From IMG/VR virus record IMGVR_UViG_3300018494_000062: DNA of 37,603 nucleotides. One strand, written 5' to 3'. Origin of the DNA: a virus. The notes under the pieces are model-generated. The model was not told where the DNA came from. It made no database searches and was given only the letters and a program-made list of their open reading frames with translations. A program made the translations under genes and the position numbers. Positions 4,379 to 22,966 of the stretch are shown one piece after another (the stretch's first letter is position 1; every line of letters begins with the position of its first letter).

Positions 4379-6076
4379 TTATCCCCCCACATATTCACAA
4401 TTCACCCTGCCTTCACTGTCCTGGTCAATCAGGAATCCAAAAAGGTCAAGTTTTTTTGTCACTGTCAGTTCAGGAATAAGTGCCTGACCATTTGCATCAA
4501 ACCGCTGAACAACAACATCATTCACCAGAATTGACATTTCATCACTGTCAATGATGACTTTGTTTCGATTGTCAGCTTGACCAATGGTCATTCCGTTGAT
4601 GTCAAAAGTGAAGTATTTTGTGATTGTGTTGAACTTTTCCTGAAGGTCACCATCAACATCTTCAATTCTGCTGGTGGTTTCGGTAAAATTCAAAGCCAAC
4701 TGTTCTGACATAAAAGTCAATTGTGCTGCAACAGTTTCCCTGAATTCAGAAAAGTTCCCTGTTTCCACATAATTGCTGACCGCTGTCATGATAATTTGTT
4801 CACAGTCTGACAGAATGGATGTTGCTGATGTTTCCACCTGTGTTTTCACTTCACTGTGAACAGCTTCCCTTGCAATTTCAACTGTATTTTCAACAGTCTT
4901 TCTGATTCCAGCATTGATGTCTGTCAATGACATTGTTTCTTCACCAAGTGTGATTTTGGTGTTTTGTGGATTCACAATGTCAATGTCAAGCTGTGTCAGT
5001 TTGTATGAATCTTTGTGTCCATGTGGTTTTGTATTTACAAGACAATAACGATAAATTCTGAATGTTTCAATTTCCGCATCTGAAAAATGCAAATCAAGTG
5101 CTGTGATGCTGATTTTGTTTTTCAGTTTCGTTGCAGTTTCATTCATGTATTCAATAGCCTTTGTCTGTAAGTTTATTGCTGTGGTCACATCATCCCATGT
5201 TGTGTCTTTTGTTGGTGCATATATAAAGCCATACTTTTCAACAGCACTGATGCTGTAAATTGTGTCACCTGACTTCACAATGTCTTCTGTGATGTTCCTG
5301 TCTTCAAGTTCAGCAATTGTCAATCTGCTGTCATCTTTTGATTCCTTGTCAATGCTGTTTTTCTTTGCACCCAAAGGAAGAAGTGCAGAATATGTTGCTG
5401 AAGCATCTGATTCTGTGGAAATGTTCAGAAGGTTTTCACCATATTCAATCCGTTGTGTGTTGGTCAATTCAAAGTCTTTTAAATAATCAATGTAGTTGCC
5501 ATCATCTTCATATCTGATGCAAAGATAACCGCCCAAAGCAGAATTGAACAATTTGCTGCTTAACACTTCCCATGTTTTTGAATAGTCTTCAGCAGACCTT
5601 GCCAAATAATTGTTTGGATCAGTGACAGTCACTTTTCCAAGTTTGAATTGTTGAAATTCCTGCACCTGTGAATTGTGCTGATTTATCAGCCATGAAAGAA
5701 AGAATTCAATCACATTCCCGGTTGCAGCAGCAGTTGCATATTCTGAATCTTTCGTGAAATCATCAGGAAAAACAAAAGGGCGAATGATTGAATCATTAAA
5801 AAAAGCCATTGCACCTTCAAGGTCAACGGCTTTCATATTATCAAAATCAACTGTGTCTTCAGTCATTCTGCCCCTGAATATTGGTTCACCATCTTGCAGG
5901 ATTTCAAACACAGACCGCAATTTTTGCAAATGTTTATAAAATGGATGTGTTGCATAGATTGAAAAAGAAGCACTTCCAACTGTGTTCACAGCAAGTTTGC
6001 ATTTTGGACTGCCAACAACAAGGTCTTCTTCTCTCGGATCATACAACACAAAGTCATCACATCTGATTTGATACAT
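4379..6076 (-). CDS. Tail-associated protein Tal / baseplate hub (Prophage_tail-type)
   Basis: The N-terminus (DFVLYDPREEDL...PKCKLAVNTVGSASFSI...ILQDGEPIFRGR) is typical of siphovirus minor structural/Tal proteins. It is positioned after Dit. Confidence 0.8.
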   Translation of the reverse strand: MYQIRCDDFVLYDPREEDLVVGSPKCKLAVNTVGSASFSIYATHPFYKHLQKLRSVFEILQDGEPIFRGRMTEDTVDFDNMKAVDLEGAMAFFNDSIIRPFVFPDDFTKDSEYATAAATGNVIEFFLSWLINQHNSQVQEFQQFKLGKVTVTDPNNYLARSAEDYSKTWEVLSSKLFNSALGGYLCIRYEDDGNYIDYLKDFELTNTQRIEYGENLLNISTESDASATYSALLPLGAKKNSIDKESKDDSRLTIAELEDRNITEDIVKSGDTIYSISAVEKYGFIYAPTKDTTWDDVTTAINLQTKAIEYMNETATKLKNKISITALDLHFSDAEIETFRIYRYCLVNTKPHGHKDSYKLTQLDIDIVNPQNTKITLGEETMSLTDINAGIRKTVENTVEIAREAVHSEVKTQVETSATSILSDCEQIIMTAVSNYVETGNFSEFRETVAAQLTFMSEQLALNFTETTSRIEDVDGDLQEKFNTITKYFTFDINGMTIGQADNRNKVIIDSDEMSILVNDVVVQRFDANGQALIPELTVTKKLDLFGFLIDQDSEGRVNCEYVGG

Positions 6077-6731: not shown

Positions 6732-9700
6732 TTACCTTCCCCTGTCCTTTCTGCTTGATAATTTTCCAAGTGCCTGATTCATAGGCACTGCCATTGCTGT
6801 TGCAAGTTCATATCCATCCACAGCAAAAGAAACATTAAATGCTTCTTTAAGTTGTGGGAAATATGCTGCAAGCATTTCAATGATTTTCTGCAAATAATAT
6901 GCAAGTGTGTTGTTCTGTTCTGCAACTGCATTTTGAATCATGCTCATAAGTGTGTTTGAACCTGCAACCACTTCACTGCCAGCTTCACCAGCACCCATCA
7001 AATTGCCTGTTGTTTGGTTATAACCGAAAATAGTCGGTTCATCCAGAACAACTGCATTGTTCATGGCTTTTTTGTACCATTCAACACTGACCGCTGGCAT
7101 TCTTCCATTTTCAAGGTCAAAATCACCCTTCAATGAAAAATGTGGTGTCTTCAGTTCTGGTTTCCAGTTTTCAAAGGTGGTCTTCATCTTATCAAGCAAC
7201 ATTCCAATCATGTTTGCTGATTTTTCCACCGCTGAACCCACATCTTCAAATGCAGTGGTTGCCACATCTTTCATTCCTGTGAACACTTCTGTCACAGTGC
7301 CACTTATTTCAGTACATTTCTTTGCAAATGTCCGGAATGCTTCTTGTGTTGCTGCATTTGTTTCATCTTTAAGTTCATAAGTTGCAAGGTCACCTGCAAT
7401 TTCAGTTCTTTTGTTGTGTAGGTCAACATATTCTTGAAGACTTCTGTCAGTCATGGTGTTGATTTCCATTACTTGTGAAAGTGCTGAAACACCCATTCCT
7501 TTGATTTCATTGAATAGGTCAGTGCCACCAATCCTGCTTTCAAGTTTGACAAGTTCATCTTGCCACATTTCAAGTGCTTTGACCTGTGAACCCAGATTGC
7601 CAAGAAGTTCACCTTTTGCAATAGGTTTTGCATTTCCCTCTGTGAATTTTTCAAACAAACTGAAAGAATCTAAAATTGAACCTTGCTGGTCAATGATTTT
7701 CTGGCTTATTTCATCCAAAGAAGACTGCAATTCTTCTTCTGCATCAATAAATTCATCATTTATGTCTTTCTTTGTTTCAAGAAGTTGTTCTTTTGCATCA
7801 AGGTATTTTTGGTCAGCTTTAAATCTTGCATCTGTTCCTTCTTCACACTGTTGTCTGATTTCATCCCAGTATTTCATTTCTTCAATAAGTGATAAATCAT
7901 TGTAAGTCTTGTATTTATCAAGAACATCTTGTGCAGTGTCAAGGACAACTTTGCCCATTTTTTCAGCAGCAGATTCAAGTCTTTTTTTCTGACCTTCCAT
8001 ACCTACTGCCATACCTTCAGCAATCATCTTGCCGACTTCATCACGCATCACCCTTGAAGGTGATTTGATTCCAAAAAGGTTCTTGATGAATTTTGTGATG
8101 TCACCAGTCCATTGTTTAAGTTTTTTCTTAATCCATTCAAATGAACCTGAAATGCCTTTCCAAATACCTTCAACAAGGTTTTTTCCAACTTCACCTGCAT
8201 CATCCCATGCCTTCTTTGCCCACTGTTTTGCTTCTTCAAATTTTTGTCCTATTTTAGCACCTAAACCTGAAAAACCTTCTGCACATAAATTGCTGATATT
8301 TGACCATGTTGATTGTGAATTATCCCATTTGCTTTCAGCCCATTTTTTTGCTTCTTCAAATTTATCACCTATATTTTTCTTTAAATTTGAAAAACCTTCA
8401 ACAACCTTTCCTTTGATGCCTTCCCATGCTTTCTTTGCATTTGCCCATTTTTTCTCTGCTTCTTTTTTTGCTTCTTCAAATTTTTTGCCTAAATCAGATT
8501 TTAATTTTGAAAAACCTTCAACAACCTTTCCTTTGATAGTTTCCCAAGATTGTTTTGCATTCGACCATGCTTGTTCTGCATTCTTTTTGGCTTCACCGAA
8601 TTTTTCACTGAACCAATTACCAACATTTTCAAATGCACCTTGCACATTTTGCTTGACACCTTCCCATTTTTCTTTTGCATCAGACCATGCATTCACTGCC
8701 CATTCTTTTGCACCTGAAAATGTTTCACCGAACCATGCACCAAGACCTGAAAATGTCTGTGTAAGTCCGTCAATAATGCCATTCCAAAGTGCAACAGGAA
8801 GTTCAATGAAAAGTGACTGGAAAATCTGTGGAAGTGCTGCAATTATACCCATCACAAGTTGAATTATACCTTGAATCAATGCAGGTAAATTTTGAACTAA
8901 TGCATTTACAATTGAAATGATTATTGTTGGCAAGTTGTCAATTATTGGTTGTATGATTTGTGGAATCACCTGACACAGCATCACAATCATCTGAACAAGT
9001 CCATCAATTAAAGCTGGAATCAATGTTGGTAGTGCCTGAACAAGTGTTTGAATAATCTGTGGCAATGCATCCACAATTGGCTGTATAATCTGTGGCAATG
9101 CAAGTGCCAAAGATGTGACCAGTTGAACAACACCTTGAATAAGTGCTGGAAGTGCTGACATTATTGCTGAAACAATGCCTGGCATTGCTTGAACAAGACC
9201 ATTCACCAAAGTCACCGCACCATCAACCAATGCTGGCAAAAGTGAATTCAACAAAGGTGGTATCAAAGGCACAATCTGTTGAACAAGGTCTGAAAGTCCT
9301 GTTGTCAATCGTGGTGCAATTTCTGTCAAATTTTTAACAACTACATTTGCAAGATTTGAGAATGAAGAAACAAGACTTTCCACATCCCCTGAACCTGCCA
9401 AAAAGTTTGTCAATGCTGATTTTGCTGTGCTTAATGATCCAGCAAGTGTTTCATTTTCTTTCGCATAGTTCCCTGCTGCATAAGATGTTTTTTCAAGAAA
9501 CATTTCCATTGCAAGACCGATTTTTTCCTGCTGTGTCATTTCCTGTGTGGATTTGTTTATTCCTTTTGATTGTGCATAAGCAGCAATTGCAGTGTCATTC
9601 ATTGCAACACCCAAATTGTCCATCATTGTGAAGTTTCCTTTGGCTGCACCTGCCACTGCTTCCATTGCAGCTTCTGTGTCAATACCCATGATTGATGCAA

Positions 9701-10553
9701 CATCCGCTGCCCTTTGCATTGCTTGTGAAGACAAATTCAATGCTTCTTGTGTTTCAAATCCAGCACCCTTGAACAATGCACCCATCTTGTTTGCTGTTGC
9801 AAGGTAGTCAGACTGTGACAAACCCATGTTTTTATATGCATCTTTTGAAACAGTTTCAAGGTCTTTCGTTGCTGTGATTGCCTTTCCTGTTGCTTCGTCA
9901 TATCCAGTGATGATTGTTGTTGACATTTCACCGATTGTTTCACCTAAATCACCAAAAACGGCTTCAGCACCGCCCATGTTCTGTTCAAGTTCACCACTCA
10001 AGCCTAATGCTTTGGCAGTTAAAACACCCATTCCTGTTGCAGCAGCACCAAGACCAACCAATATGCCCTTGCCAACAACCGCTGCACCTTTGCCGATTGC
10101 ACCAAAAACTTTTCCTAATTTGCTGCCAGTTTTTTCTGCTGTGACATCAAGGTCTTTCAGTGATTTGTCATATTTATCAGCTGCCTTGCTTGCTTCTTCC
10201 AAGTCTTCTTCATTTTTCTGAATTTCCGTTGAAAGTTTTTCAATTTCTTCAGCAACTTTTTTTGTTTCACTGCTGTTTTTCCCTTGCTGCATGTATAGGT
10301 TTTTATATTCGGCTTTTAGTTTGTCGAGTTTTTCTCGCTGTTTTTCCGTTGCTGATGACACTTCATCAAAAGATTTTGCAGCTTCTTTTGATTTGCCACC
10401 ATCAAACATTTTGCTGAAAGATGTGCCAACTTTTGCAAAAAGTGATTCCATCTTTCCTGCAAATGATTCTGTTCTTGTAGAAGTGTTTTCAATTGCTTTG
10501 TTTGCTTCTGAATTGTCAATTGCTATTGTTCCCAGAAGCTTGAATAAATCCAT
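6732..10553 (-). CDS. Tape measure protein
   Basis: 1273 aa with a coiled-coil N-terminus, a hydrophobic LPxIIQ-rich middle and W/F-periodic repeats. It lies between the chaperones and Dit. AAGGGGGTGA SD. Confidence 0.95.
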   Translation of the reverse strand: MDLFKLLGTIAIDNSEANKAIENTSTRTESFAGKMESLFAKVGTSFSKMFDGGKSKEAAKSFDEVSSATEKQREKLDKLKAEYKNLYMQQGKNSSETKKVAEEIEKLSTEIQKNEEDLEEASKAADKYDKSLKDLDVTAEKTGSKLGKVFGAIGKGAAVVGKGILVGLGAAATGMGVLTAKALGLSGELEQNMGGAEAVFGDLGETIGEMSTTIITGYDEATGKAITATKDLETVSKDAYKNMGLSQSDYLATANKMGALFKGAGFETQEALNLSSQAMQRAADVASIMGIDTEAAMEAVAGAAKGNFTMMDNLGVAMNDTAIAAYAQSKGINKSTQEMTQQEKIGLAMEMFLEKTSYAAGNYAKENETLAGSLSTAKSALTNFLAGSGDVESLVSSFSNLANVVVKNLTEIAPRLTTGLSDLVQQIVPLIPPLLNSLLPALVDGAVTLVNGLVQAMPGIVSAIMSALPALIQGVVQLVTSLALALPQIIQPIVDALPQIIQTLVQALPTLIPALIDGLVQMIVMLCQVIPQIIQPIIDNLPTIIISIVNALVQNLPALIQGIIQLVMGIIAALPQIFQSLFIELPVALWNGIIDGLTQTFSGLGAWFGETFSGAKEWAVNAWSDAKEKWEGVKQNVQGAFENVGNWFSEKFGEAKKNAEQAWSNAKQSWETIKGKVVEGFSKLKSDLGKKFEEAKKEAEKKWANAKKAWEGIKGKVVEGFSNLKKNIGDKFEEAKKWAESKWDNSQSTWSNISNLCAEGFSGLGAKIGQKFEEAKQWAKKAWDDAGEVGKNLVEGIWKGISGSFEWIKKKLKQWTGDITKFIKNLFGIKSPSRVMRDEVGKMIAEGMAVGMEGQKKRLESAAEKMGKVVLDTAQDVLDKYKTYNDLSLIEEMKYWDEIRQQCEEGTDARFKADQKYLDAKEQLLETKKDINDEFIDAEEELQSSLDEISQKIIDQQGSILDSFSLFEKFTEGNAKPIAKGELLGNLGSQVKALEMWQDELVKLESRIGGTDLFNEIKGMGVSALSQVMEINTMTDRSLQEYVDLHNKRTEIAGDLATYELKDETNAATQEAFRTFAKKCTEISGTVTEVFTGMKDVATTAFEDVGSAVEKSANMIGMLLDKMKTTFENWKPELKTPHFSLKGDFDLENGRMPAVSVEWYKKAMNNAVVLDEPTIFGYNQTTGNLMGAGEAGSEVVAGSNTLMSMIQNAVAEQNNTLAYYLQKIIEMLAAYFPQLKEAFNVSFAVDGYELATAMAVPMNQALGKLSSRKDRGR
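8221..8760. repeat. About 4.5 tandem 120-bp (40-aa) repeats inside the tape measure gene
   Basis: The exact 32-mer TTTGAAAAACCTTCAACAACCTTTCCTTTGAT occurs at 8386-8417 and 8506-8537. TTTTTTGCTTCTTCAAATTT occurs at 8344 and 8464. Diverged copies lie near 8226, 8584 and 8704. Confidence 0.85.
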
Positions 10554-10570
10554 TGTTGTTCACCCCCTTA

Positions 10571-10858
10571 TCATTTAGGGCTAAAATTGTTAAGAATATC
10601 CATTGAATTTTGAACTGTTGTTTCAATTGTTCTTTTTGACATGTTCTGATTCTCTTTATTTGTGTTGATTCCGTCTTTGAAGTCCTTGAATGAACCTTCC
10701 CAGACCTTATGCAAGAAGAATTCCCAGTCTGTTTCATCTTCTTTTTCCTGGTTGATTGTTTTTATAAAATCAGACACAAATTCACTGAATCTTTCTGTCT
10801 GGATCATTCCTTCCATAAAAAAACATGGATTTGCATATCGTTTTGACAGCAAATCCAT
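10571..10858 (-). CDS. Tail assembly chaperone, distal (T-like) segment
   Basis: It lies between the G-like chaperone and the tape measure gene. It has its own AGGTGA SD and ATG, and its frame stays open upstream into the end of the G gene in the -1 frame. Confidence 0.7.
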   Translation of the reverse strand: MDLLSKRYANPCFFMEGMIQTERFSEFVSDFIKTINQEKEDETDWEFFLHKVWEGSFKDFKDGINTNKENQNMSKRTIETTVQNSMDILNNFSPK

Positions 10859-10872
10859 GAATTTAAAATCAC

Positions 10873-11334
10873 CTATTTGAACAATTTTGAAACAACCTTG
10901 AAAAAATCCCCAAATTCTTCTTTCTTCACAAAGTCAATAATCATTTCAAGGAACATCACCATGTCAAGACCTTTGATTTCTTCAATTGTCAAGTTTGATG
11001 TGCTTTCAAGCATCTTGTAAATTTCATCTTCACATTTTGGAAGATTGCTAAATATTACATTTGCAATTTCTAAAATGACAGACACACCCACAATTGATGC
11101 TGTTTTGTTTGTTCCTTTTTCTTTTGATGTGAAGGAAGCAATCATTTTCTGAATGCCATCTTTTTCAAAGCATGCAGTGAATTCATTCACACCAATTTTG
11201 CTGATGATTCTAAACATAGGAAAAACATCTTCTGTTTTTAATCGTCTGAATGTATATGGTTTTTCAACCTGTTCTGGTGCTGTGATTGGTGCTTCCTTTA
11301 TTTCTGAATTGTTTTCAATTTTCTTTTTCGCCAT
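10873..11334 (-). CDS. Tail assembly chaperone (G-like)
   Basis: 153 aa, acidic, immediately downstream of the major tail region and upstream of the T-like ORF and the tape measure gene. Confidence 0.75.
   Translation of the reverse strand: MAKKKIENNSEIKEAPITAPEQVEKPYTFRRLKTEDVFPMFRIISKIGVNEFTACFEKDGIQKMIASFTSKEKGTNKTASIVGVSVILEIANVIFSNLPKCEDEIYKMLESTSNLTIEEIKGLDMVMFLEMIIDFVKKEEFGDFFKVVSKLFK
10900..10906 (-). other. Candidate -1 programmed frameshift slippery heptamer T_TTT_TTC
   Basis: The minus-strand zero frame reads gaT TTT TTC aag. The -1 frame from here reads QGCFKIVQIGDFKF, then MDLLSKRY..., with no stop. Confidence 0.6.
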
Positions 11335-11352
11335 TGTTCAAATCCCCTTTTC

Positions 11353-11562
11353 TTATTTCTTTATTTCGTTTGTTGGTTTTTCAACCTTGTCATTTTTAAC
11401 AGGTGCAGGTGCAGAAGCCTTTTCAACTTCCACATAATCACCTGATCTTTTTATTTCTGCAAATCTTGCTTCAGTCACAGTCAGTTTTTCACCAACATTT
11501 CTGAATGTGCCAGTGTATCTGTCAAGAAATTTTTTTCTTACAACCACTTTTATTTTTTTCAT
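11353..11562 (-). CDS. Hypothetical 69-aa protein in the tail module
   Basis: ORF between the major tail protein and the chaperones. No family recognised. Confidence 0.5.
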   Translation of the reverse strand: MKKIKVVVRKKFLDRYTGTFRNVGEKLTVTEARFAEIKRSGDYVEVEKASAPAPVKNDKVEKPTNEIKK

Positions 11563-11581
11563 GGTTCAAATCCCCCTTCAA

Positions 11582-12175
11582 TTACACTGTTGCTTCCTGT
11601 GGATAGTAAATTCTTACTGGAACTCTGTCCAAATCAGATTCAATGTCACCATAAGCTGTGAATGTTGCTTTTACAACTGCATTTTCTTTGTTTTTCGGAT
11701 CAAGCTGAAAACCAGATTTGCAAAGTGCATTGTCAAAGATAACAATTATCTGTTTTGACTGGTCAGCTGTGTAACCAACAAAACCAAGATTTTGAACATA
11801 ATCACCTTCAGTGATTGCATTTTTTGTCCGGATGCAATCAAAACCAGCCACATTGTGTTCAGAATCTTCACCAAGAACTTCACCAAGTGTGGTCATTGAA
11901 AGAATGTCTTTGTTAAGTTCTGCAAAGTTTACTTCTGCTTCACCTGTGCCACCCTGCATCACTGCAAGACCTTTTGCAACAACTGCTGCACCATCAATTT
12001 CAATGTCAAGCACTTCAGGTGTGATTTTGATTGAACTTCCACCACTTGTTGCACCAAGCACTGTGCCTGACCATCCTTCACCTTCTTTGAATTCCAAGCC
12101 TTTGAACCATGTGCCAGCACCAAGCGGAATGTTTGATGGTGTTGCTTTTGTGATTCCATGTTTAACTAAACTCAT
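11582..12175 (-). CDS. Major tail protein
   Basis: 197 aa and beta-rich (LGAGTWFKGLEF...GATSGGSSIKITPEVLDIEIDGA). Its position upstream of the chaperones and tape measure gene is canonical. Confidence 0.85.
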   Translation of the reverse strand: MSLVKHGITKATPSNIPLGAGTWFKGLEFKEGEGWSGTVLGATSGGSSIKITPEVLDIEIDGAAVVAKGLAVMQGGTGEAEVNFAELNKDILSMTTLGEVLGEDSEHNVAGFDCIRTKNAITEGDYVQNLGFVGYTADQSKQIIVIFDNALCKSGFQLDPKNKENAVVKATFTAYGDIESDLDRVPVRIYYPQEATV

Positions 12176-13849: not shown

Positions 13850-14710
13850 TTATTTCTTGAATTTTGCAAGAACAACTTTTGATTCGTTTGTAAGTGCTAC
13901 ACCATAATATTTTGCAGATGTGATTTCATGTGTCTGGCTTCTTGGTTTCCACTCTGAATCTGTCTGTGTGTCTTTCTTTAAGAAGATTGTTACTGCTGGA
14001 AGTTCATCTTCTGTGTATTCTGTTTCTGCATTTGCAGGTTCAAGTTTGATGATAGGGCATGTGTAAATGCCATCTTCACCAGCAATGATTTTCTTTGATG
14101 GAATAATACGAACACCAGCAATCATGCCAATTTCACCTGACATCATAACATTGTTGTTGTATTTGTCAGCAGAAATGAAGTCACTGTCTTTTCTTAATGC
14201 TGTTACCTGTTCAGGTGCAACAAACATCACTTTGTCTGTGATTTCTTCTTCATCAAATGTGCCAACACCATCAACAATTCCTGCATAGCTGATTTTTGCA
14301 GTGCCATCACCGCTTGTGATTGAAGAAGTAAGAACGGCTGCAAGAACATCATTGTCAACTTTTCCTGCAATTGCTTTTGCAAGCTGCTGTTCTACCTGTC
14401 CAATTAGATTTCCAAGACCGCTGTTCACAGCTTCCTGTGTGATTCCAACTGCTTTCATTGCTTTTTTGATTGTGAATGTTTTTGTGCCTACTGTCATTGC
14501 TGTAAGGTCAACTTCTGCACCTTCTGCAACATCTACCGCATCACCGATATAATTCCATGATGGAACTGTTTTTGTGTCACCTGCAACACCCTGAAGGGAT
14601 GTGTCAAGTTTTGCATATGGTGTGATTTTTAGCATTGCTTCAATTTTAGCATTGATCATGTCACCCATAACTTCTGGATTGATTACATTTGTCATTGTTG
14701 TTAAAGCCAT
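13850..14710 (-). CDS. Major capsid protein
   Basis: 286 aa, positioned right after the scaffold gene. MALTTMTNVINPEVMGDMINAKIE... is typical of small Firmicutes-phage capsid proteins. Strong SD. Confidence 0.85.
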   Translation of the reverse strand: MALTTMTNVINPEVMGDMINAKIEAMLKITPYAKLDTSLQGVAGDTKTVPSWNYIGDAVDVAEGAEVDLTAMTVGTKTFTIKKAMKAVGITQEAVNSGLGNLIGQVEQQLAKAIAGKVDNDVLAAVLTSSITSGDGTAKISYAGIVDGVGTFDEEEITDKVMFVAPEQVTALRKDSDFISADKYNNNVMMSGEIGMIAGVRIIPSKKIIAGEDGIYTCPIIKLEPANAETEYTEDELPAVTIFLKKDTQTDSEWKPRSQTHEITSAKYYGVALTNESKVVLAKFKK

Positions 14711-14735
14711 AATTTTTCACCTTAACCTTTCTTTT

Positions 14736-15422
14736 TTATGATTTCATGATTTCTTTGTATGCTTCAGGATTTTCATTGTAGATTTTCTGTCTTTCAGCAT
14801 ACGGCTTTTTCAGAAGGTCTTCTTTTGTGTAACCTTCTTTTTTGTCTGGATCAGGCAGTTTGTTTTCTTCAATTACTTGACCTTTCATCAAATTGCCATT
14901 TCCTGTTTCAAACTGTTGTGGGAACTGCACCTTCAAACCTGAAAGAACATCATCCCATCCTTTGATATTGTCATTTTCATCAAGTTCCAGTGTTTTGTTC
15001 TGTTCCTGCATCTTTTCATTGATTTTGAAAGTCAAATAATCAATGTCAACGGCTTTTTCAGACAATAAAGCAACTTTTACAGCTGATTTGATTTTTGTTT
15101 CCTGAAGTTGTTTTTTAAGGTTTTCAACTTCTGTTTCATAACCTGATATTTTTTTCTGTGCATCTTCATTGCCTTTTGTGCCTTTTTTCAAGTCTGCAAT
15201 CAAATTATTTGCTGTTTCCAGTTCGGTATCTTTGCCAGAAAGTAAATCATTCAGCTTCTGAATATCAAGTTCATGTTTACCTTTGGCAACATATTCACCG
15301 CTTCCTAAATTGCCAAGCTTGATTTGTTTGTCTTTGTTGGCATCATTGCCATTGTGTTCATTGATTTTGGCTTCAATTTGCTTGAACAAATCATCACCCA
15401 AGATTCCTTTTAAAAAATCCAT
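14736..15422 (-). CDS. Scaffolding protein (GP20-like)
   Basis: 228 aa, highly charged and coiled-coil. The N-terminus MDFLKGILGDDLFKQIEAKINEHN is typical. It lies directly upstream of the capsid gene. Confidence 0.75.
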   Translation of the reverse strand: MDFLKGILGDDLFKQIEAKINEHNGNDANKDKQIKLGNLGSGEYVAKGKHELDIQKLNDLLSGKDTELETANNLIADLKKGTKGNEDAQKKISGYETEVENLKKQLQETKIKSAVKVALLSEKAVDIDYLTFKINEKMQEQNKTLELDENDNIKGWDDVLSGLKVQFPQQFETGNGNLMKGQVIEENKLPDPDKKEGYTKEDLLKKPYAERQKIYNENPEAYKEIMKS

Positions 15423-15544
15423 ATCAAATTCCTTTCTTTGTCACTGTTTTTAAATGTGGTGTCACCACTGACAATGTGATTCAGTTTAAATGCCATAAAT
15501 CAGGGCAAATTCCAAGCTTTTAAATGTCATCAGGTAATTTGGAC

Positions 15545-15574
15545 AATAAAAAAAGGACATCATTGCTGATGCCC
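15545..15574 (-). terminator. Rho-independent terminator after the fibre cassette
   Basis: The minus strand reads GGGCATCA-gcaa-TGATGTCC (one G:U pair) followed by TTTTTTTATT. Confidence 0.7.
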
Positions 15575-15592
15575 TTTTATAGACTGATTATT

Positions 15593-16012
15593 TTATTCAT
15601 CAATTTCCCAATATGCAGGATAGTCAGTTGGATTCCAAACACAGACACTTCCTTCTGGTGCAATACATCTGTATTTTTTGCCTTCAAATGTCATTTTGTC
15701 ACCGCCATAATACCATTTGCCAACCACAAATTCTGGATATTCGTCTTCTGTTGGTGTTTCACCTTCTGATTCAGTGTCATTTCCTGCATTGAATCTTGCT
15801 TCAAGTGCTTTGATTCGTCTGTCCATTTCTTCAAGTTTTTTAAGGACATCAACACTGTCTTTTGGATTTGCTTTGTCCTGTGCCAGTTTTAGAAGTTCTG
15901 ATCTTTGTTCATCTGTGATGAATCCTTTCACCCATATGGTGTCAATCTTTTTGAGTAGGTCAGAAAGTTCAAATTTTCCTTCCTGTGCAACATTTTTGAT
16001 TATGTTATACAT
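15593..16012 (-). CDS. XkdX-like N-terminus, coiled coil and a CBM5/12-like carbohydrate-binding C-terminus
   Basis: WVKGFITDEQRSELL resembles XkdX. GKWYYGGDKMTFEGKKYRCIAPEGSVCVWNPTDYPAYWE fits the W..GD.V...G..Y.C....W.P...P..W pattern. ATG at 16012 lies 7 nt after AAGGGGGA; the alternative start is 16018. Confidence 0.6.
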   Translation of the reverse strand: MYNIIKNVAQEGKFELSDLLKKIDTIWVKGFITDEQRSELLKLAQDKANPKDSVDVLKKLEEMDRRIKALEARFNAGNDTESEGETPTEDEYPEFVVGKWYYGGDKMTFEGKKYRCIAPEGSVCVWNPTDYPAYWEIDE

Positions 16013-16025
16013 ATTCATTCCCCCT

Positions 16026-18521
16026 TTATGTTGTTATGTTAAGAACCGATTTTTGAAGTTCTATGAATTTGTTATCAATATATGATTTTGTGTCAGCCAC
16101 ATATTCAACAGCCATATGTGCATTTTTGTCATTGAAAATGTTGGTTGTTGTTTTGTGACAGTGAATTGCTTTATATGCTGCAATTTCTTCTTCTGAAAGT
16201 GGTGTTTCAATAGGTGTTTCAAGTTCATAAAGCACACTAAATGGATTGTTTTCAATCCATGTTCGCAAACTGTCAACATCACTTATACCTTCAGGAACTC
16301 TTATCATAGCACCATATGCATTGCCAATCTTGAAGAATCCAGATTGTGTGAGTGAACCAGACACAAAAACAAAACGATTGGATAAAGCTGCACCATTCGC
16401 TTTTGATGGATAGGTCATTGAAGTTTTTACAAGGTAGAAATATGATTCAGCACTTTTCACCCATCTTTCATCTTCTGATCCATCATAATTTGCCAACATC
16501 ACCCTTTGCACATAAACACCTTTTTCAAGGTCAATTTCATCACAAATCCACTGTTGACCGCTTGCATCAGTATAATTGCCACCTGATGCCACTGGAATGC
16601 CTGGCAGTCCGTTTGTTGCGGAAAAGGTTGCTGTTTTCACTTCCTTTCCCAGTTCAAAAGGTGTTGCATCTTCACCTATTTCAAGTTGTGGTTTTATAAC
16701 AAGATTATTAAGCACAACCCCTGCTTTTACATAAAATTTCAAAGTGGTTAAATTTCCATTGAATGAATATGTTTTTTTAACATCACCAACTGGCAATTCG
16801 TATTTCCCATCAATGTATGGTTGCATGTAATATGTTGAAGGTGAACCGCCTGACACACCTGATAAAGTGTATGTACCTTTGACAAGCAAATTGCCCTGAA
16901 ATATTGAAAATGCAGTGTCATCTTCAGCTGTACCATTTACCACTATGTGACCATTATCTTTGACAGTGAATTTGATGCCTTTTGCTTCCATACTTCCTTT
17001 GGCATAAGGGAATGGGATCAGATTCTTCCCATACACACCCACTTCAATGCCATCTTCAGCAATATTTACCAGTTCTTGTGCCCATTCAGGTGATGGTGAA
17101 GGCACTGCACCTGAATATTCTTCAAATTCAGTTTCAGTTTCGCCAACCTCAATTTGTATGTTTTCTATTCTTAATTTGTTTGAATTTAAGCAAAATGCAG
17201 GATAAAACACTGCACCAGAGTATGCACTGCTTATGGTAAATTTTTGTGATATCCTTTTTTTCTCGTTTATGGGCAAACTTATATTGTATTTCCCAGAGTA
17301 ACCATTGCCAGTTCCTTCTACATATAGATGGATATTTGTCACATTTGGTGTTGGTGAATTTCCAGTTTCTAAAAGTGTAATATCGGCAGATACTGTTACA
17401 GTTTGATTTTCATATAATGTAGGGCATATGCCAGTTTCATCTGACCATCCACTCATTAACCACCCACGAGAATAACTATTTGTTTGAGTACTGGATTCTT
17501 TTTGATTCCCTTGTGCAATAACACCATTTTCTAATTCTTCAATGGTTTTTCCTTCCGATATTCTTGGCTTTTTATAACCATATAAGTTCTTACCAGTTGT
17601 GGTTTTCTGTGTTGTCTTGCCGTATATGTTTAATGCCCTTAACTTTGCATTTGAACTGTCATTCAGATGAATGCTTTCACCTTCATCTTCACAAACAATT
17701 GCCCTGTCATTTATAAAGGCAATATCATCAGTGTTTTGTGTGATTCTTGCTTCATGGTCATCAAGTGTGTCTGCATCCTTTTGGAATTGCTGTCTGACCG
17801 CTTCCCCTGCTGAATCATACTGTGTGCCATCATGACCAACACGAATGTCCATAAGTTCAGCATCACCAGTTGTGCTTCCTTCTTTCATTGTGGCAAGGTT
17901 GTCAACCCTTGCTTTCAAAAGTGCCTGTTCTGCTGTTAAATTCGCAATATTGTCTTTGTTTTCTTTTACCTGTACAATGTCAAGCTGACTTGCAACAGTG
18001 TCATCAACCCAGATTCTGATTTGATTTTGAAGTTCCTGTTTCCATGCTTCTATAATATCAACATATTCTTCAAGCACTTCATCTGAACAATCAAGACCTT
18101 TTCCAACAGATATTCCGCTGAAGATTGATGTGTTCCATGCATAATCAACATCAGTACCATTCAAACAAACAAAACGGACTAAAAATGCAAGACTTCCTGC
18201 ATATTTTGTGGCATTCCTTGAAAGAAGCCATGAACATTGCACATTGTTTTCATCCGTTTCATCAATTTGCAAGTCTGTCACTTCATAAATGCCTGTTGTC
18301 TGTTCTTTTGTATCTGAATTGATGTAATGTATTTCAACTTTGTCACTTTCAAGCATGTCATGGCCTTCAACAAATCTTGGAATTGTGAAAGTGAATCTTT
18401 CAGAATTGTGGTCATTCTGCATGATTGAAATTTTAGTTGGTGTCATGTTTTTTATTGTCCTTGTTATAGGATCAATCACAAAGTGTGCATCTGTATCAAA
18501 TACTTTTTTTGTATGTGACAT
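16026..18521 (-). CDS. Large fibre / receptor-binding-type protein with a BppU_N-like N-terminus
   Basis: ISIMQNDHNSERFTFTIPRF...VEIHYINSD is BppU_N-like. A coiled coil follows, then the fibre motif GDAELMDIRVGHDGTQYDSAGEAVRQQ and about 550 aa of beta-rich sequence. ATG at 18521 follows GAAAGGGGTGA; the track start at 18530 is a GTG inside the SD. Confidence 0.7.
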   Translation of the reverse strand: MSHTKKVFDTDAHFVIDPITRTIKNMTPTKISIMQNDHNSERFTFTIPRFVEGHDMLESDKVEIHYINSDTKEQTTGIYEVTDLQIDETDENNVQCSWLLSRNATKYAGSLAFLVRFVCLNGTDVDYAWNTSIFSGISVGKGLDCSDEVLEEYVDIIEAWKQELQNQIRIWVDDTVASQLDIVQVKENKDNIANLTAEQALLKARVDNLATMKEGSTTGDAELMDIRVGHDGTQYDSAGEAVRQQFQKDADTLDDHEARITQNTDDIAFINDRAIVCEDEGESIHLNDSSNAKLRALNIYGKTTQKTTTGKNLYGYKKPRISEGKTIEELENGVIAQGNQKESSTQTNSYSRGWLMSGWSDETGICPTLYENQTVTVSADITLLETGNSPTPNVTNIHLYVEGTGNGYSGKYNISLPINEKKRISQKFTISSAYSGAVFYPAFCLNSNKLRIENIQIEVGETETEFEEYSGAVPSPSPEWAQELVNIAEDGIEVGVYGKNLIPFPYAKGSMEAKGIKFTVKDNGHIVVNGTAEDDTAFSIFQGNLLVKGTYTLSGVSGGSPSTYYMQPYIDGKYELPVGDVKKTYSFNGNLTTLKFYVKAGVVLNNLVIKPQLEIGEDATPFELGKEVKTATFSATNGLPGIPVASGGNYTDASGQQWICDEIDLEKGVYVQRVMLANYDGSEDERWVKSAESYFYLVKTSMTYPSKANGAALSNRFVFVSGSLTQSGFFKIGNAYGAMIRVPEGISDVDSLRTWIENNPFSVLYELETPIETPLSEEEIAAYKAIHCHKTTTNIFNDKNAHMAVEYVADTKSYIDNKFIELQKSVLNITT

Positions 18522-18550
18522 CAAAATCACCCCTTTCTTTTACTTATCTT

Positions 18551-19348
18551 TTATGCAGTGGCAATTCCACCGCTTTTATATCCTATAATTTTGTATGGAA
18601 TACACCATCCATTGCTTTTTGTGGATGCTCTTATATATGCATCTTCAAATTCTGCACCGCTGTCTGTCATTTTATATTTTCTATATCTACTCAATTCATC
18701 ATCATCTGTTATCAATGCATATGTTTCCCCTTTGCAACAGCATTCTGCTTCTTCCAAAAATCCACCACTATTTTGATTTGCAAAGACAATTTTAAATCTT
18801 GTGTATTCACTCAAATCAAGTGCAATTGTCTGTGCAGCAAATGCCGTTGTGATGTCTGGATTTGTCCATAATTCAGTGCCATTCAAGGTTTCATTCACTT
18901 CTGCAACATAATCTTCAAATCTTTTGTTGAGTGCTGTTGTAAATGGATCAAGATGTCCATTCACCGCTGCCAAAAACTGTTGATACAAGTCCATTGTTGG
19001 ATTTAGTGTTGTATATCCAGCATCTGCACCTTGTTCAATCTTGTATTTTACCAGTGTTGATGTCTTGATTGCTGTTCCGTCTATTGTTGCACCCCTTACA
19101 CCAATAAAAAGTGTTCCTGCTTCTGCAAGCACTTCATGTGGAACAACACATGCATCATCAGTCAACAGCATTTCAACTGGTGTTGTGTTCTTTGCCGTAT
19201 GAAACACCGCTGTTCTTGCACTGTAATCATTCCAGGCATCATCAAACACAACTTGAAGCTGAACAGATTCAACATCACCTGATGCAATTTTGACCTTCTG
19301 TGCAGCAATCAAATGTTGATCCGCTGTGTATAAGTTTATAACTGTCAT
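18551..19348 (-). CDS. BppU_N-like baseplate/receptor-binding-type protein
   Basis: VQLQVVFDDAWNDYSARTAVFHT...GTLFIGVRGATIDG...VKYKIEQG is BppU_N-like. The C-terminal head has ELWTNP...AQTIALDLSEY. GAAGGGGA SD. Confidence 0.6.
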   Translation of the reverse strand: MTVINLYTADQHLIAAQKVKIASGDVESVQLQVVFDDAWNDYSARTAVFHTAKNTTPVEMLLTDDACVVPHEVLAEAGTLFIGVRGATIDGTAIKTSTLVKYKIEQGADAGYTTLNPTMDLYQQFLAAVNGHLDPFTTALNKRFEDYVAEVNETLNGTELWTNPDITTAFAAQTIALDLSEYTRFKIVFANQNSGGFLEEAECCCKGETYALITDDDELSRYRKYKMTDSGAEFEDAYIRASTKSNGWCIPYKIIGYKSGGIATA

Positions 19349-19365
19349 CTTTTCCCCTTCTTTCT

Positions 19366-19396
19366 AATAAAAAAAGGACTGAATTCAATCAGTCCT
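19366..19396 (-). terminator. Rho-independent terminator (proximal of two)
   Basis: Perfect 8-bp stem AGGACTGA/TCAGTCCT with a 6-nt loop. On the minus strand it is followed by TTTTTTTATT. Confidence 0.75.
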
Positions 19397-19410
19397 TAAA
19401 AAATTGCATT

Positions 19411-19445
19411 AAAAAAGCACCCTGCATTCATTCCTGCAAAGTGCT
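19411..19445 (-). terminator. Rho-independent terminator (distal of two)
   Basis: The minus strand reads AGCACTTTGCA-ggaatgaa-TGCAGGGTGCT, an 11-bp stem with two G:U pairs, then TTTTTT. It starts 3 nt after the stop of the 72-aa ORF. Confidence 0.65.
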
Positions 19446-19447
19446 TT

Positions 19448-19666
19448 TTATTTTTGTCTATCTTTGAAGAAGTCTGCCCAGTATGGATTTTCTTCATCAA
19501 ATATTTTCTTCTGCTCTGGTGTCAATTTGTGTGGATAATCAGCAAACATGTTGAATATATGTTCTTTGTCAAAGCTGAACAACCATTCGCCAACTGTTTC
19601 AGGATTTTCAACCCACCAGATTGCATCTGAAGGATTGTTTTTATAAAACTTATTTAATTGTGCCAT
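19448..19666 (-). CDS. 72-aa hypothetical protein (candidate partner of the MuF C-terminal domain)
   Basis: AAAGGAAGGG SD lies 5 nt upstream. Its start overlaps the last 17 nt of the MuF gene. No family recognised. Confidence 0.6.
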   Translation of the reverse strand: MAQLNKFYKNNPSDAIWWVENPETVGEWLFSFDKEHIFNMFADYPHKLTPEQKKIFDEENPYWADFFKDRQK

Positions 19667-21461
19667 ATTTACCCTTCCTTTGCTCGTTTTCTGCTGTGTT
19701 TATATACCCTAAAAGGTTTTTAAGGTCATTTGAATCCTTAAATGAATCAACATCAATCATGAACGAATCCACACCAAATGTGCTTTTAACCTCGCCAAAC
19801 CTTGATTTGAGCGTATAACCTGGATTTCCGTTGAAATCTGTCCATCCGCTTCTTGTTGCTGATTGCAATTCAAGATATTGCAGTATGCCTTCATCCGTTT
19901 TCCTTACAATAGCTGCATGTTTGCCTGAAACAAGATAGTATTCTTTGCTTGTTTCAAGTTGTTTTAACAGCTTTTTGCCTGCTGTTACTGATGATTTTGC
20001 TGATTCCGTTATTGTTTTAATGCCTGGAAGTCTGGATATTGCATCCAAATTAAACTTGGTTGCAAAGAATCTTCTGCTTGCACCATCTCTGAAGTCAAGC
20101 ACATTCAAGCCACCCTTTTGCCCAATATAAGCAAGACCAACTGAAGCACAAGAACCAGATGTGTTGTCACCACCTGACAGAACATTGATGATTTCATCAT
20201 TTGTCAAAGGTGTGTCATGTCTTTTTACTTCTCTGTATTCAACACCTTGTGTTTTCAAATCATCAATAATCTTTTTGCAATCATCACTTACTTTTTCCGC
20301 TTGTATTTTAACACCTTTTACATTATTTGTCAATACCTTTGTTGCTTTCGGCTGTTTATTAAACATAGGATTGTTTGCAAGTAATTTGGAATAATGGTTG
20401 TATTCCCTTGTGTTCATCATGTCCAGAACCTTTTGAAAATCCTTTGTGCCATACTTTTCTTCCATCTGCTGAACATAATTCATATACTTCTTATTTTCCT
20501 TTGAATAGAAGCCTTTTTTGAATTCTGCATAGTCTTCTGGCTTTTCAAATGATTCAAGTTGCTTTGTGAAGTTGTTCATCTTTGTGAATCCACCTTGCAC
20601 CGCCCATCTTGCCCTTTGAAGCAATGCACACCGACAATTGACAACTTCTGCTGCACCGCCTGAAGAATCACCAGGAAGCATCAAACCATTGCTGAACTTT
20701 TCATCAAGTTCCCTGATTTCACCATCAACCATTGCATGTGATTCCCTTGTCTTGCCATCAAGTGTTGCATCCCACTGTTTGACCACATCAGCACCTTTTT
20801 CTTTTGCCTTGTAGCATGTGTCCATTGCTGATTGACACTGTATTCTGTGGCCTTCTGTCCTTGCAATCCTGATCGCATTGTTATATCCAATTTTGGTATA
20901 TGCAGAAAGTTGTTGTGCAACTTGCTTGAATGTCATGCCTGTTGCAATGCCCCTGCTGACCTGTGCTGTGATTTTCTTCTTCAGCAAGCCAACATCTTCA
21001 CCCAGTCTTGAATATAAACCTTGACTGATTTTTGAATCCAGTTGCACTGCTCTGACCATTGCTTCCTGATCCAAAGGAAAACAAAGCGGAATGCCCTGTC
21101 CTTGCAGGTCATACATTGTGCCAATAAATCCGTCTTCATAGCATTTATTGAGATAATCAGCAACATTTGTGAATTCTTCCTTGTGCATCTTGTCAAGAAT
21201 GTCACTGACTTGCTTTTTCAATGATTCCTGGTATTTCTTTTGATACACTTTTGACTGCATCCTTGATTTTAGAATTTCCCTTTCTTCTTCATCTTCAATG
21301 TTGTCATATACAGCTTTCAGGTCTTCAAATTCTTCATGCAGTGTCTGTGCCTTTTTTGTGATGTCATCAAGTGATTTGTTGTAGGCTTGTTTTAATCTTT
21401 TGATGATTGCTTCTTCATTGTTCAAAAAGGTTTGTTGCACTATTTTTTGCCTTTTATTCAT
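19650..21461 (-). CDS. Head morphogenesis protein, SPP1 gp7 / Mu F family, with a ~310-aa C-terminal extension
   Basis: IRIARTEGHRIQ...DATLDGKTRESHAMVDGE...VVNCRCALL is the Phage_Mu_F core at about aa 190-285. Residues ~290-603 are additional and unassigned. Confidence 0.85.
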   Translation of the reverse strand: MNKRQKIVQQTFLNNEEAIIKRLKQAYNKSLDDITKKAQTLHEEFEDLKAVYDNIEDEEEREILKSRMQSKVYQKKYQESLKKQVSDILDKMHKEEFTNVADYLNKCYEDGFIGTMYDLQGQGIPLCFPLDQEAMVRAVQLDSKISQGLYSRLGEDVGLLKKKITAQVSRGIATGMTFKQVAQQLSAYTKIGYNNAIRIARTEGHRIQCQSAMDTCYKAKEKGADVVKQWDATLDGKTRESHAMVDGEIRELDEKFSNGLMLPGDSSGGAAEVVNCRCALLQRARWAVQGGFTKMNNFTKQLESFEKPEDYAEFKKGFYSKENKKYMNYVQQMEEKYGTKDFQKVLDMMNTREYNHYSKLLANNPMFNKQPKATKVLTNNVKGVKIQAEKVSDDCKKIIDDLKTQGVEYREVKRHDTPLTNDEIINVLSGGDNTSGSCASVGLAYIGQKGGLNVLDFRDGASRRFFATKFNLDAISRLPGIKTITESAKSSVTAGKKLLKQLETSKEYYLVSGKHAAIVRKTDEGILQYLELQSATRSGWTDFNGNPGYTLKSRFGEVKSTFGVDSFMIDVDSFKDSNDLKNLLGYINTAENEQRKGKYGTIK

Positions 21462-21478
21462 AGCACATCACCACCTTT

Positions 21479-22966
21479 TTATTCTTCAGGTGTGTCAATT
21501 GGAATTTCATCTTCTTCTGTTGTTTTCACCGCTGACAGCATTGCTTTTGCATCATCAGTGTTCTTTTCTTCCTGCATCTTTTCAATCTGGTCTTTCAATT
21601 CATCAAAATTCCAGTCCATAACTTCACAGATTGCTTTCAATGTCTTTTCATCACCAACATTTGCAGCAACATTCAAGATTGTGTTCACTCTGATTTGCTG
21701 TGTTTCAGCTTCAGTTTTCTGATTCTGAATGTTTTCTGTTTCATTTGTCAGTGATGTTCTTTCAAAGTTGAATTCAATGTCTTTAAGCTGATAATCAGTG
21801 CCATTTTCCTGATTGATTTCAGCAAGAACCACTTTGACAATTTCTTTTAATACTTTGCAAAGTCTTTTTGTCATGGCAATTGCTTTCAAATCCAGTGCAT
21901 AGAATGCTGTTTTGACTGCCATGTTTGTTGTTGCATTTGTATCTTTCAAGCTGGTTGTGTCCATACCCATGCCGAACTTGTAAATTGCTTTTTCATCAAG
22001 TTCAAGTTTTTCTTTTCTTGCCTGGTATGGAATATCAACTGTCTGAATGTCAATGCCACCTTCAGCATCAACACCAACCACTTTCTTTGTTTTTAAGTTC
22101 TGCTGAAGTTCATCAAGGTTGTCACCCTGAAAACCTTTTACAACATGAATTGGTGTGTCAAAATCCTTCAGGTTGTTTGACAATGCACATGCATGAAGGT
22201 CATAATCATCAATCAATGCTTTAATTGGTGCAAGACCGCTGATTTGCTTCTTGTTATTGTCCAACCGCCAAAATGGAATATATCCCAAAGGATAACCCAT
22301 TCTTTTGCCTGTCTTTTCATCCGTATAAACCACATGTGGTCTTGGATTGATTTCAACTGTATCATCAAGCTGAATTTTGCCTGTTGAACCTGCTTGAACA
22401 TAGAAATATGTTTCATTCTCTGTCCAGTCCTGAATCCTTTTAATGACCTTTTTGCCCTTGTCAATTCTGTCTATATACCAGAACAGAATATGGTCACAGT
22501 CATCATCAGTGTCTTTTGCTCTTACTTCAACAACACCCATTCCATCAGCTTGCTGAAAAGAAAGTCTGTTGTCTTTGTTTTTATATCCGTAAATGTAGTC
22601 AAAGCCTTTGTTGTATGCCCCTTTTACAAGTTCACCGATTTCAGACCAGAATTCATCATCAAAATACATGTCAAGATGGTCTTGCAATCCTTCTGTCTTT
22701 TCTTTTGCTTTGATTGGATTTTCTTTGAATGATAGAACATAAGATGCAAGCTGATCAGATAACAATGTGAAGAATGGATGACTGATTTTGATGTTGCTTC
22801 TGTATGTATCTTCAGTCAGTATTCCATCTGTATTGAAATAAAACATTCTATAATTTAGAATGTCATGTCTTGCATCATAATATCTTTGACCTATTCCAGC
22901 CATGTGTTTTTTCTCTGATGTTATATCTTCATCAATGAACCTTTTAATTTCTGCTATTGATAACAC
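21479..22966 (-). CDS. Portal protein (SPP1 gp6 family)
   Basis: 495 aa. The N-terminus IKRFIDEDITSEKKHMAGIGQRYYDARHDILNYR is typical of SPP1-type portals. GTG start about 10 nt after AAGGGGTGA. Confidence 0.9.
   Translation of the reverse strand: MLSIAEIKRFIDEDITSEKKHMAGIGQRYYDARHDILNYRMFYFNTDGILTEDTYRSNIKISHPFFTLLSDQLASYVLSFKENPIKAKEKTEGLQDHLDMYFDDEFWSEIGELVKGAYNKGFDYIYGYKNKDNRLSFQQADGMGVVEVRAKDTDDDCDHILFWYIDRIDKGKKVIKRIQDWTENETYFYVQAGSTGKIQLDDTVEINPRPHVVYTDEKTGKRMGYPLGYIPFWRLDNNKKQISGLAPIKALIDDYDLHACALSNNLKDFDTPIHVVKGFQGDNLDELQQNLKTKKVVGVDAEGGIDIQTVDIPYQARKEKLELDEKAIYKFGMGMDTTSLKDTNATTNMAVKTAFYALDLKAIAMTKRLCKVLKEIVKVVLAEINQENGTDYQLKDIEFNFERTSLTNETENIQNQKTEAETQQIRVNTILNVAANVGDEKTLKAICEVMDWNFDELKDQIEKMQEEKNTDDAKAMLSAVKTTEEDEIPIDTPEE

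Follow-up and report, generated by a model that had tools for sequence, protein, structure and literature searches.

Staphylococcus phage 80alpha carries a long coiled-coil fibre, FibL, and a shorter, non-essential fibre, FibU, the BppU-like N-terminal domains of which are arranged in stacked rings (PMC7048315). These two proteins (gp62 and gp68, PDB entry 6v8i) form the closest known system to a three-gene fibre/adhesin cassette in the IMG/VR virus record IMGVR_UViG_3300018494_000062 (37,603 nt, referred to in full as the window), which likewise includes two fibres of unequal length that start with a BppU-like immunoglobulin (Ig) domain. The cassette lies on the minus strand between the genes for MuF and a DUF7675 protein and those for the scaffold and capsid proteins, with terminators on both sides. 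This gut Clostridia prophage has, amid its head-assembly genes, an operon that encodes two fibres plus a small sugar-binding protein. The parts are of known kinds, namely BppU-fold anchors, coiled-coil fibres and carbohydrate-binding modules (CBMs), and what is new is the position of the genes and its recurrence.

The explanation we favour, with slightly better than even confidence, is that the cassette is an accessory virion adhesion-fibre operon, located in a plastic slot between two late units and expressed by read-through. The original prediction for this locus was right about its anatomy, and the observation is confirmed; the interpretation placed on it is supported in part.

Cassette proteins and virion location

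The predicted gene order, portal, MuF, a 72-aa ORF, the 265-aa, 831-aa and 141-aa cassette proteins, scaffold and capsid, was borne out by the ORF list and by Pfam, and Dit, Tal and the 553-aa post-Tal protein are also where they had been placed (Table 1). The capsid gene is followed by those for a connector, tail tube, tape measure protein (TMP), Dit, Tal, the 553-aa post-Tal protein, holin and endolysin. The cassette genes are closely packed, with gaps of 29 nt and approximately 7-13 nt.

AlphaFold2 (AF2) models of the monomers, built on alignments of metagenomic homologues, have predicted local distance difference test (pLDDT) scores of 87.7 for the 265-aa short fibre and 80.9 for the 831-aa long fibre. 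In the short fibre, a BppU-like Ig domain (residues 1-110) is followed by helices (119-155) and a C-terminal beta-sandwich head (158-258), and in the long fibre the order is a BppU-like anchor (10-140), a coiled coil (156-272), a pair of CBM-like jelly rolls (~275-620) and, at the C-terminus, a conserved domain (629-830). For both, the top Foldseek match in the PDB is BppU of Lactococcus phage TP901-1 (4v96_AQ, E 2.5e-7, for the short fibre and 4v96_AA, E 4.1e-6, for the long fibre; probability 1.00 in each case). Further matches of the short fibre are to the NF5 baseplate, the 80alpha baseplate and a monocin side fibre, and those of the long fibre are to 80alpha chains 6v8i AK and AJ and to CBM22, CBM4 and SGBP-B jelly rolls. 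The two anchors together match 6v8i chains AK, AJ and AM, which, judged by their modelled lengths, appear to be FibL and FibU. Solved head-fibre or decoration proteins (phi29 gp8.5, the P68 head fibre, SPP1 gp12) were not among the Foldseek PDB matches at E<0.001; one match in BFVD bears the automatic name 'Head fiber protein' and was not counted as evidence.

By sequence, neither fibre matched a Pfam family or a PDB chain, and an hhalign comparison of the 265-aa anchor profile with the 831-aa anchor profile was not significant (E 0.17). The C-terminal head of the 265-aa protein had also been thought to follow the same motif logic as that of the post-Tal protein; the two have LW..QT..LSE in common and nothing more, BLASTP of the heads finding no similarity. 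Each fibre family combines a conserved N-terminal domain with a distal part that is swapped (collagen, SGNH esterase, deacetylase, NAGPA), and this pattern is typical of receptor-binding fibres. The family alignment of the 265-aa protein shows a conserved N-terminal domain and a head that varies, some members having collagen inserts, and in some of the >669 homologues of the 831-aa protein an SGNH, deacetylase or NAGPA domain takes the place of the C-terminus. That the cassette genes are of a kind normally found 3' of Tal, as the original prediction stated, is supported by these BppU/FibL/FibU-like folds and by homologues that do lie after Tal elsewhere.

The 141-aa protein consists of a helical N-terminal half and a C-terminal CBM5/12 module (Pfam CBM_5_12, PF02839, residues 99-138; 30.2 bits against a cut-off of 26.2, E 4.5e-7), and its residues 2-62 match phrog_2310, of unknown function. 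Of the two resemblances first proposed for it, that to CBM5_12 stands, scoring above the Pfam cut-off, and that to XkdX does not, as XkdX (PF09693) gave no match at E<=10 in Pfam or E<=1 in NCBIfam. Its gene is always found directly 3' of a fibre gene, homologues having this position in ten viral loci or contigs (designated by L-numbers: L032, L036, L037, L039, L041, L042, L050, L068, L074 and L185). The homologue in L185, an unrelated contig with a P22/SU10-type portal, is 82 % identical; it is preceded by a 552-aa collagen-repeat protein and followed by an amidase and a holin (region 8330-11603). This implies that the small CBM5/12 gene has recently spread by horizontal transfer along with the 3' ends of fibre genes.

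By analogy with FibL and FibU, the N-terminal domains would form rings of trimeric fibres round the virion axis, and the CBM-type distal domains and the CBM5/12 protein would bind cell-wall glycans reversibly, so that adsorption and host range would be tuned. The most likely site for such rings is the distal tail (baseplate), beside the conserved 553-aa post-Tal protein, to which we would give about an even chance; a neck or head-proximal site is the less probable of the two, and other sites take up the remainder. All solved structures matched via the N-terminal domains (Foldseek PDB, E<0.001) are baseplate or side-fibre proteins. Anchors of the 265-aa type are encoded directly 3' of Tal in L078-80 and L094, and those of the 831-aa type directly 3' of homologues of the 553-aa protein in L068 and L167; elsewhere, homologues also sit before the lysis genes or after the post-Tal protein. 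Fibres with the 831-aa-type anchor are also found between TMP and Dit, an unusual position, in L106 (6051-7886), L122 (10001-11965) and L131 (3065-6340).

Several observations weigh against the baseplate and, more generally, against the explanation we favour. A census in IMG/VR of the 831-aa anchor domain found 63 distinct genes, 24 in a head module (the copy in this phage included), ten in a tail module and 29 unclassified, the census markers having been seeded from this lineage. Thus, 24 of the 34 classifiable anchor genes adjoin portal or MuF, which fits a neck or head-proximal location better than the baseplate. The neck passage structure (NPS) of TP901-1, an elongated, CBM-tipped fibre, has also been modelled with a BppU/FibU-like ring of N-terminal domains at the portal/adaptor (PMC10747895), so the fold cannot separate the two sites. 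In addition, though the 265-aa protein was originally called BppU_N-like, and its Ig fold can indeed be superposed on the BppU N-terminal domain by Foldseek, the Pfam family BppU_N (PF10651) matched neither this protein nor the N-terminus of the 831-aa protein (E<=0.01 or E<=10), nor any of 19 homologues. Comparison of the anchor profiles with the TP901-1 BppU N-terminus using hhalign was likewise not significant, and such comparisons do not discriminate between baseplate and neck.

These fibres may be of the neck (collar/whisker, NPS-like) or otherwise head-proximal, with the N-terminal rings on the portal or adaptor, a possibility that we entertain tentatively. Such a location would account for the association of the genes with portal and MuF. 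Consistent with it, L002, L038, L048 and L064 have fibre genes in a tight fit between those for portal and the minor capsid protein, and in L098 and L156 fibre genes lie in the interval from terL to portal. Some homologues lie after the receptor-binding protein and before lysis, the position of nps in TP901-1, and as nps is itself 3' of the baseplate genes, some of the tail-position homologues could be NPS-like. However, the solved structures matched are of baseplates and side fibres, both anchor types occur elsewhere directly 3' of Tal or between TMP and Dit, and in L033-35 the anchor is ~50 % identical though the portal and head proteins have no tblastn match (E 1e-4). Nor is there sequence similarity to the NPS N-terminus: hhalign of the A3 and A1 anchors against TP901-1 NPS residues 1-151 gave E 0.2 and 0.14, in a comparison of a profile with a single sequence that has low sensitivity. 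It is conceivable, if doubtful, that portal/MuF-linked fibres with BppU-like rings make up a widespread and undescribed neck or head-proximal class in gut Clostridia siphophages. If they do, gene position would reflect the assembly site, and the MuF/scaffold slot with its terminators and covarying leader (see below) would be a dedicated low-expression accessory locus.

The MuF/scaffold junction

A recent insertion is not supported, and the MuF/scaffold junction, as related phages show, is a conserved, variable slot. In L074/75, terL, portal and MuF are 86, 70 and 72 % identical to those in the window and the cassette proteins 49, 41-43 and 52 %, at the same MuF/scaffold junction. Fibre cassettes are kept there in relatives of only 41-72 % protein identity; L074/75, L076/77, L082 and L023 share the head/tail backbone of the window, and cassettes are also found at this junction in L033-35, L042, L050 and others. 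The unrelated lineages L042 and L050 have the order portal, MuF, a 115-aa ORF (YjcQ in L042), fibre and 141-aa-like gene, with scaffold directly 3' of the latter in L050, and the layout in L033-35 is similar. The junction is without a cassette in the relatives L004-13, L017, L024 and L026, and in L003 it holds a three-ORF insert (92, 493 and 95 aa) with no match to Pfam or to the cassette proteins of the window. The position is not idiosyncratic but old and recurring across lineages, as the excess of head over tail positions in the census also indicates.

Other cargo is found in the slot. In L098 it is occupied by a holin and an ELLD-type endolysin, and a 744-aa fibre with a 265-aa-type anchor, collagen, GDSL esterase and Big_3 lies in the terL-portal interval (L098 8628-10862 and 13360-14383 for these features). 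Several relatives have tRNA genes (Thr, Ser, Gln, Glu) between the fibre gene and the scaffold leader (Table 1), whereas the window has none.

The idea that the cassette is a swappable host-range module survives for evolutionary time, over which alleles, lysis genes, tRNAs or nothing have occupied the junction, but not as a recent insertion. Between this phage and its closest cassette-bearing relative (L074/L103), identity is 41-52 % for the cassette, compared with 78 % for Tal and 83 % for the 553-aa protein. As it is far more diverged than these two, the cassette is the better candidate for a determinant of variable specificity, with the 553-aa protein as a possible conserved platform. The suggestion in the original prediction of a module giving a second specificity is thus a reasonable one.

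The strong tandem terminators upstream of the cassette (T1 and T2) and the strong single one downstream (T3), each a hairpin with a T-run, were borne out by their fold energies (Table 1), as was a 14-bp direct repeat. The 14-mer AATAAAAAAAGGAC is present only at 15545-15558 (copy 2) and 19366-19379 (copy 1), and 0/100 shuffles contained two or more copies. It is no longer than 14 nt and comprises, in two terminators, the final four bases of the stem (GTCC), a run of seven T and ATT. Tails that fit a relaxed version are rare (11 distinct sites in 2.6 Mb of related loci), and six of the 11 are T2 or T3 at this junction. T1 is kept 3' of DUF7675 or MuF in L003, L074, L076 and L082, with T1 and T2 in tandem in L076 and L082 and T1 only in L074. 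L023, L076 and L082 contain a hairpin homologous to T2 (GGACTGA...TCAGTCC with a T-run). One of T3 type (GGRCATC...TGTCC with a T-run) is found 5' of the scaffold leader in L074 and also in the cassette-less L016 group. As T1 and T2 are kept in relatives and T3-type hairpins are found even without a cassette, the ancestral layout was therefore one or more terminators, slot, terminator, leader and scaffold. Most likely, the 14-bp repeat results from the similarity of two terminator tails and is no excision device.

It had been proposed instead that the cassette is a recently acquired host-range block that can be deleted by recombination between the 14-bp repeats. The 14-mer is exact and limited to the two cassette-proximal terminators, and deletion would formally leave T1, T2 and the leader, an arrangement that resembles the cassette-less relatives. 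However, the same prophage, 100 % identical over 9.2 kb, was found in many metagenome assemblies, and among those of >=5 kb the same 27 carry DUF7675 and the 265-aa gene; no cassette-less form was seen among these ~27 assemblies. Look-ups via the flanking DUF7675 and scaffold proteins returned one arrangement each, and an indel exactly at the 14-mers was not found in any contig read. A scan of metagenome contigs (JGI) gave 0 matches to the predicted deletion junction TCAGTCCTTTTTTTATTGTCCAAATT and also 0 to the intact-junction control, and so carries no weight either way. The repeat stops at 14 nt with only seven positions outside the T-run, T2 and T3 are each conserved in relatives, the cassette is in the same place in relatives of 41-72 % protein identity, and the points at which similarity to relatives breaks off in the DNA are 19405 (after T1) and ~15511-15523 (within the leader), away from the repeats. 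The GC content of the cassette equals that of the flanks, and recent foreign acquisition was rejected on this ground. Hence, we consider this explanation very improbable. No GenBank phage was matched by the 9.2-kb region in a megablast search, and a search of genome contigs with MuF returned only four distant matches in Clostridia metagenome-assembled genomes (MAGs) and no close relative.

The absence of a promoter between the upstream terminators and the start of the 265-aa gene, also noted originally, was borne out by a sigma-70-type scan, which found no promoter-like site on the minus strand at 19349-19470. The best sigma-70-like match in the region (20305-20333, minus strand; TTGACA, 17 nt, TAAAAT and an upstream TG; 11/12) is inside the MuF coding sequence on the gene strand, and the number of such sites in the region is not above chance. 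Under the read-through explanation, the first unit would run from terS through portal, MuF and DUF7675 to its terminators, followed by the slot and then by a terminator, the leader and the scaffold-capsid unit. Low-level transcription of the cassette could come from the upstream late operon by read-through of T1/T2 or by antitermination, which would suit low-copy fibres.

Insulation by terminators on both sides is also a property of morons, and the slot in relatives holds non-structural cargo such as tRNAs and lysis genes. The cassette might then be moron-type cargo expressed from the prophage, encoding, for example, surface proteins of the lysogen. Against this, the scan found no promoter belonging to the cassette, which does have the T3 terminator, and families of membrane anchors were unmatched, signal peptides not having been searched for. 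The proteins have phage-fibre folds with trimer-type coiled coils, and their homologues lie inside the tail modules of many phages. We rate this as the least probable of the explanations considered.

Leader element and flanking genes

The unit of the highly expressed scaffold and capsid genes starts with a conserved structured leader element directly 5' of the scaffold ribosome-binding site. Its features are an outer stem of 5 bp, an inner hairpin and the invariant TAAAAACA, and compensatory changes affect 6/10 pairs (RNAalifold). A covariance model (R1) found one copy per locus, always 5' of scaffold, in eight related loci, and there was no Rfam match in the window. The element might serve to stabilise the mRNA, as a site of processing or in the binding of a regulator. 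Taken as a whole, the 123-nt leader is no more stably folded than its shuffles (z -0.7). In other relatives the leader is of a different form, with a hairpin and TAAAAC ... GTAAAAAKYGTA. The leader motif CAWWTAAAAAC showed no sign of being a genome-wide late-promoter signal, with 21 near-matches (<=1 mismatch) compared with 13 expected; only one other exact copy is found on the gene strand, within the TMP gene.

Two further regions show exchange. The C-terminal ~200 residues of MuF (about 400-603; window 19650-20450), which match phrog_7104, of unknown function, are swapped among relatives (L003-L030), with MuF matches ending at residue 318, 376 or 401; L028, which has a different portal, matches MuF residues 391-603 only. 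In the comparison with L103, the closest cassette-bearing relative (window 2714-4375, 13850-15422), the post-Tal protein, Tal and p112 are 83, 78 and 78 % identical, scaffold and capsid 45-47 % and TMP 34 %, a mosaic in which exchange of the capsid genes was independent of the tail tip.

Table 1. Positions of the cassette, its flanks and related elements; positions are those of the window unless another locus is named
Feature	Locus	Position	Strand	Remarks
terS, terL	window	upstream of portal	-	ORF list
Portal	window	21479-22966	-	SPP1_portal, 3.7e-52
MuF	window	19650-21461	-	Pfam
72-aa DUF7675 protein	window	19448-19666	-	Pfam
Upstream flank (MuF + DUF7675)	window	19448-21461	-	end of packaging/portal unit
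T1 terminator	window	about 19411-19449	-	directly 3' of DUF7675 stop; -19.5 kcal/mol, z -6.3
T2 terminator	window	19367-19397	-	-13.3 kcal/mol, z -5.0; 3' end is 14-mer copy 1
265-aa short fibre	window	18551-19348	-	cassette gene 1
831-aa long fibre	window	16026-18521	-	cassette gene 2; 834 aa from GTG at 18530
141-aa protein	window	15593-16018	-	cassette gene 3; 139 aa if start is 16012
T3 terminator	window	15545-15578	-	3' of 141-aa gene; -15.4 kcal/mol, z -4.7; 3' end is 14-mer copy 2
Structured leader element	window	15420-15479	-	directly 5' of scaffold ribosome-binding site
Scaffold	window	14736-15422	-	Pfam
Capsid	window	13850-14710	-	Pfam
Downstream flank (scaffold + capsid)	window	13850-15422	-	
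Tal	window	4379-6076		
Post-Tal 553-aa protein	window	2714-4375		
Leader element	L003	14144-14203		
Leader element	L082	14361-14417		
Leader element	L098	14506-14565		
Leader element	L128	12928-12991		
Leader element	L118	2546-2604		
Leader element	L181	11959-12014		
Slot tRNA	L118	2407-2482		
Slot tRNA	L120	12348-12423		
Slot tRNA	L124	12713-12801		
Slot tRNA	L129	6750-6824		
Slot tRNA	L148	3835-3911		
Slot tRNA	L150	5502-5578		

Comparison with known systems

Predictions of host range for uncultured gut Firmicutes phages usually rest on the genes 3' of Tal. In this phage, and in at least 23 further viral contigs, it is the head block that contains the most variable adhesin genes, and here the post-Tal 'receptor-binding protein' is conserved. 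Annotation pipelines or host-range engineering that consider only the region downstream of Tal would miss adhesins of the head block. A fibre cassette in a terminator-bounded MuF/scaffold slot is common among uncultured gut Clostridia siphophages, and the literature, our coverage of which was incomplete, yielded no account of head-module fibre genes in phages of this kind. If the fibres prove to be attached at the neck, they would represent a new and common virion architecture, and if they are attached at the baseplate, fibre genes need no linkage to those of their docking partners.

Phage 'morons' and plastic regions at operon boundaries were reportedly described by Juhala et al. in 2000. The cassette resembles a moron in being self-contained cargo between conserved genes, with its own terminator and variable among relatives. 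It differs in that no promoter of its own was found and in that the cargo consists of structural fibre genes, not lysogenic-conversion genes.

The NPS of TP901-1 and Tuc2009 (ORF51) is likewise a long accessory fibre with a CBM tip and modelled ring-forming N-terminal domains. There is no detectable sequence similarity, and nps lies in a different place, 3' of the baseplate genes. BppU of TP901-1 (ORF48, 4v96) provides the best structural match for the N-terminal domains of both fibres and has the same layout of N-terminal domain followed by helix. However, BppU is an adaptor for separate BppL receptor-binding trimers, whereas the proteins described here bear their own distal domains, and their genes are between MuF and scaffold and not directly 3' of Tal.

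The two fibres of 80alpha also have no sequence similarity to those in the window, and the fibre genes are 3' of Tal and the receptor-binding protein in 80alpha and between MuF and scaffold here. FibU resembles collagen, in contrast to the short coiled coil and beta head of the 265-aa protein, and the distal tower domains of 80alpha contrast with CBM-like jelly rolls here. Nonetheless, the arrangement characteristic of 80alpha, an Ig domain followed by a shaft (helices at 119-155 and 156-272 in the short and long fibre, respectively) and distal domains, is found in the AF2 models, and collagen repeats occur in members of the families. In both systems, the long fibre continues as a coiled coil with distal beta domains, and the fibres are accessory to a separate main receptor-binding protein.

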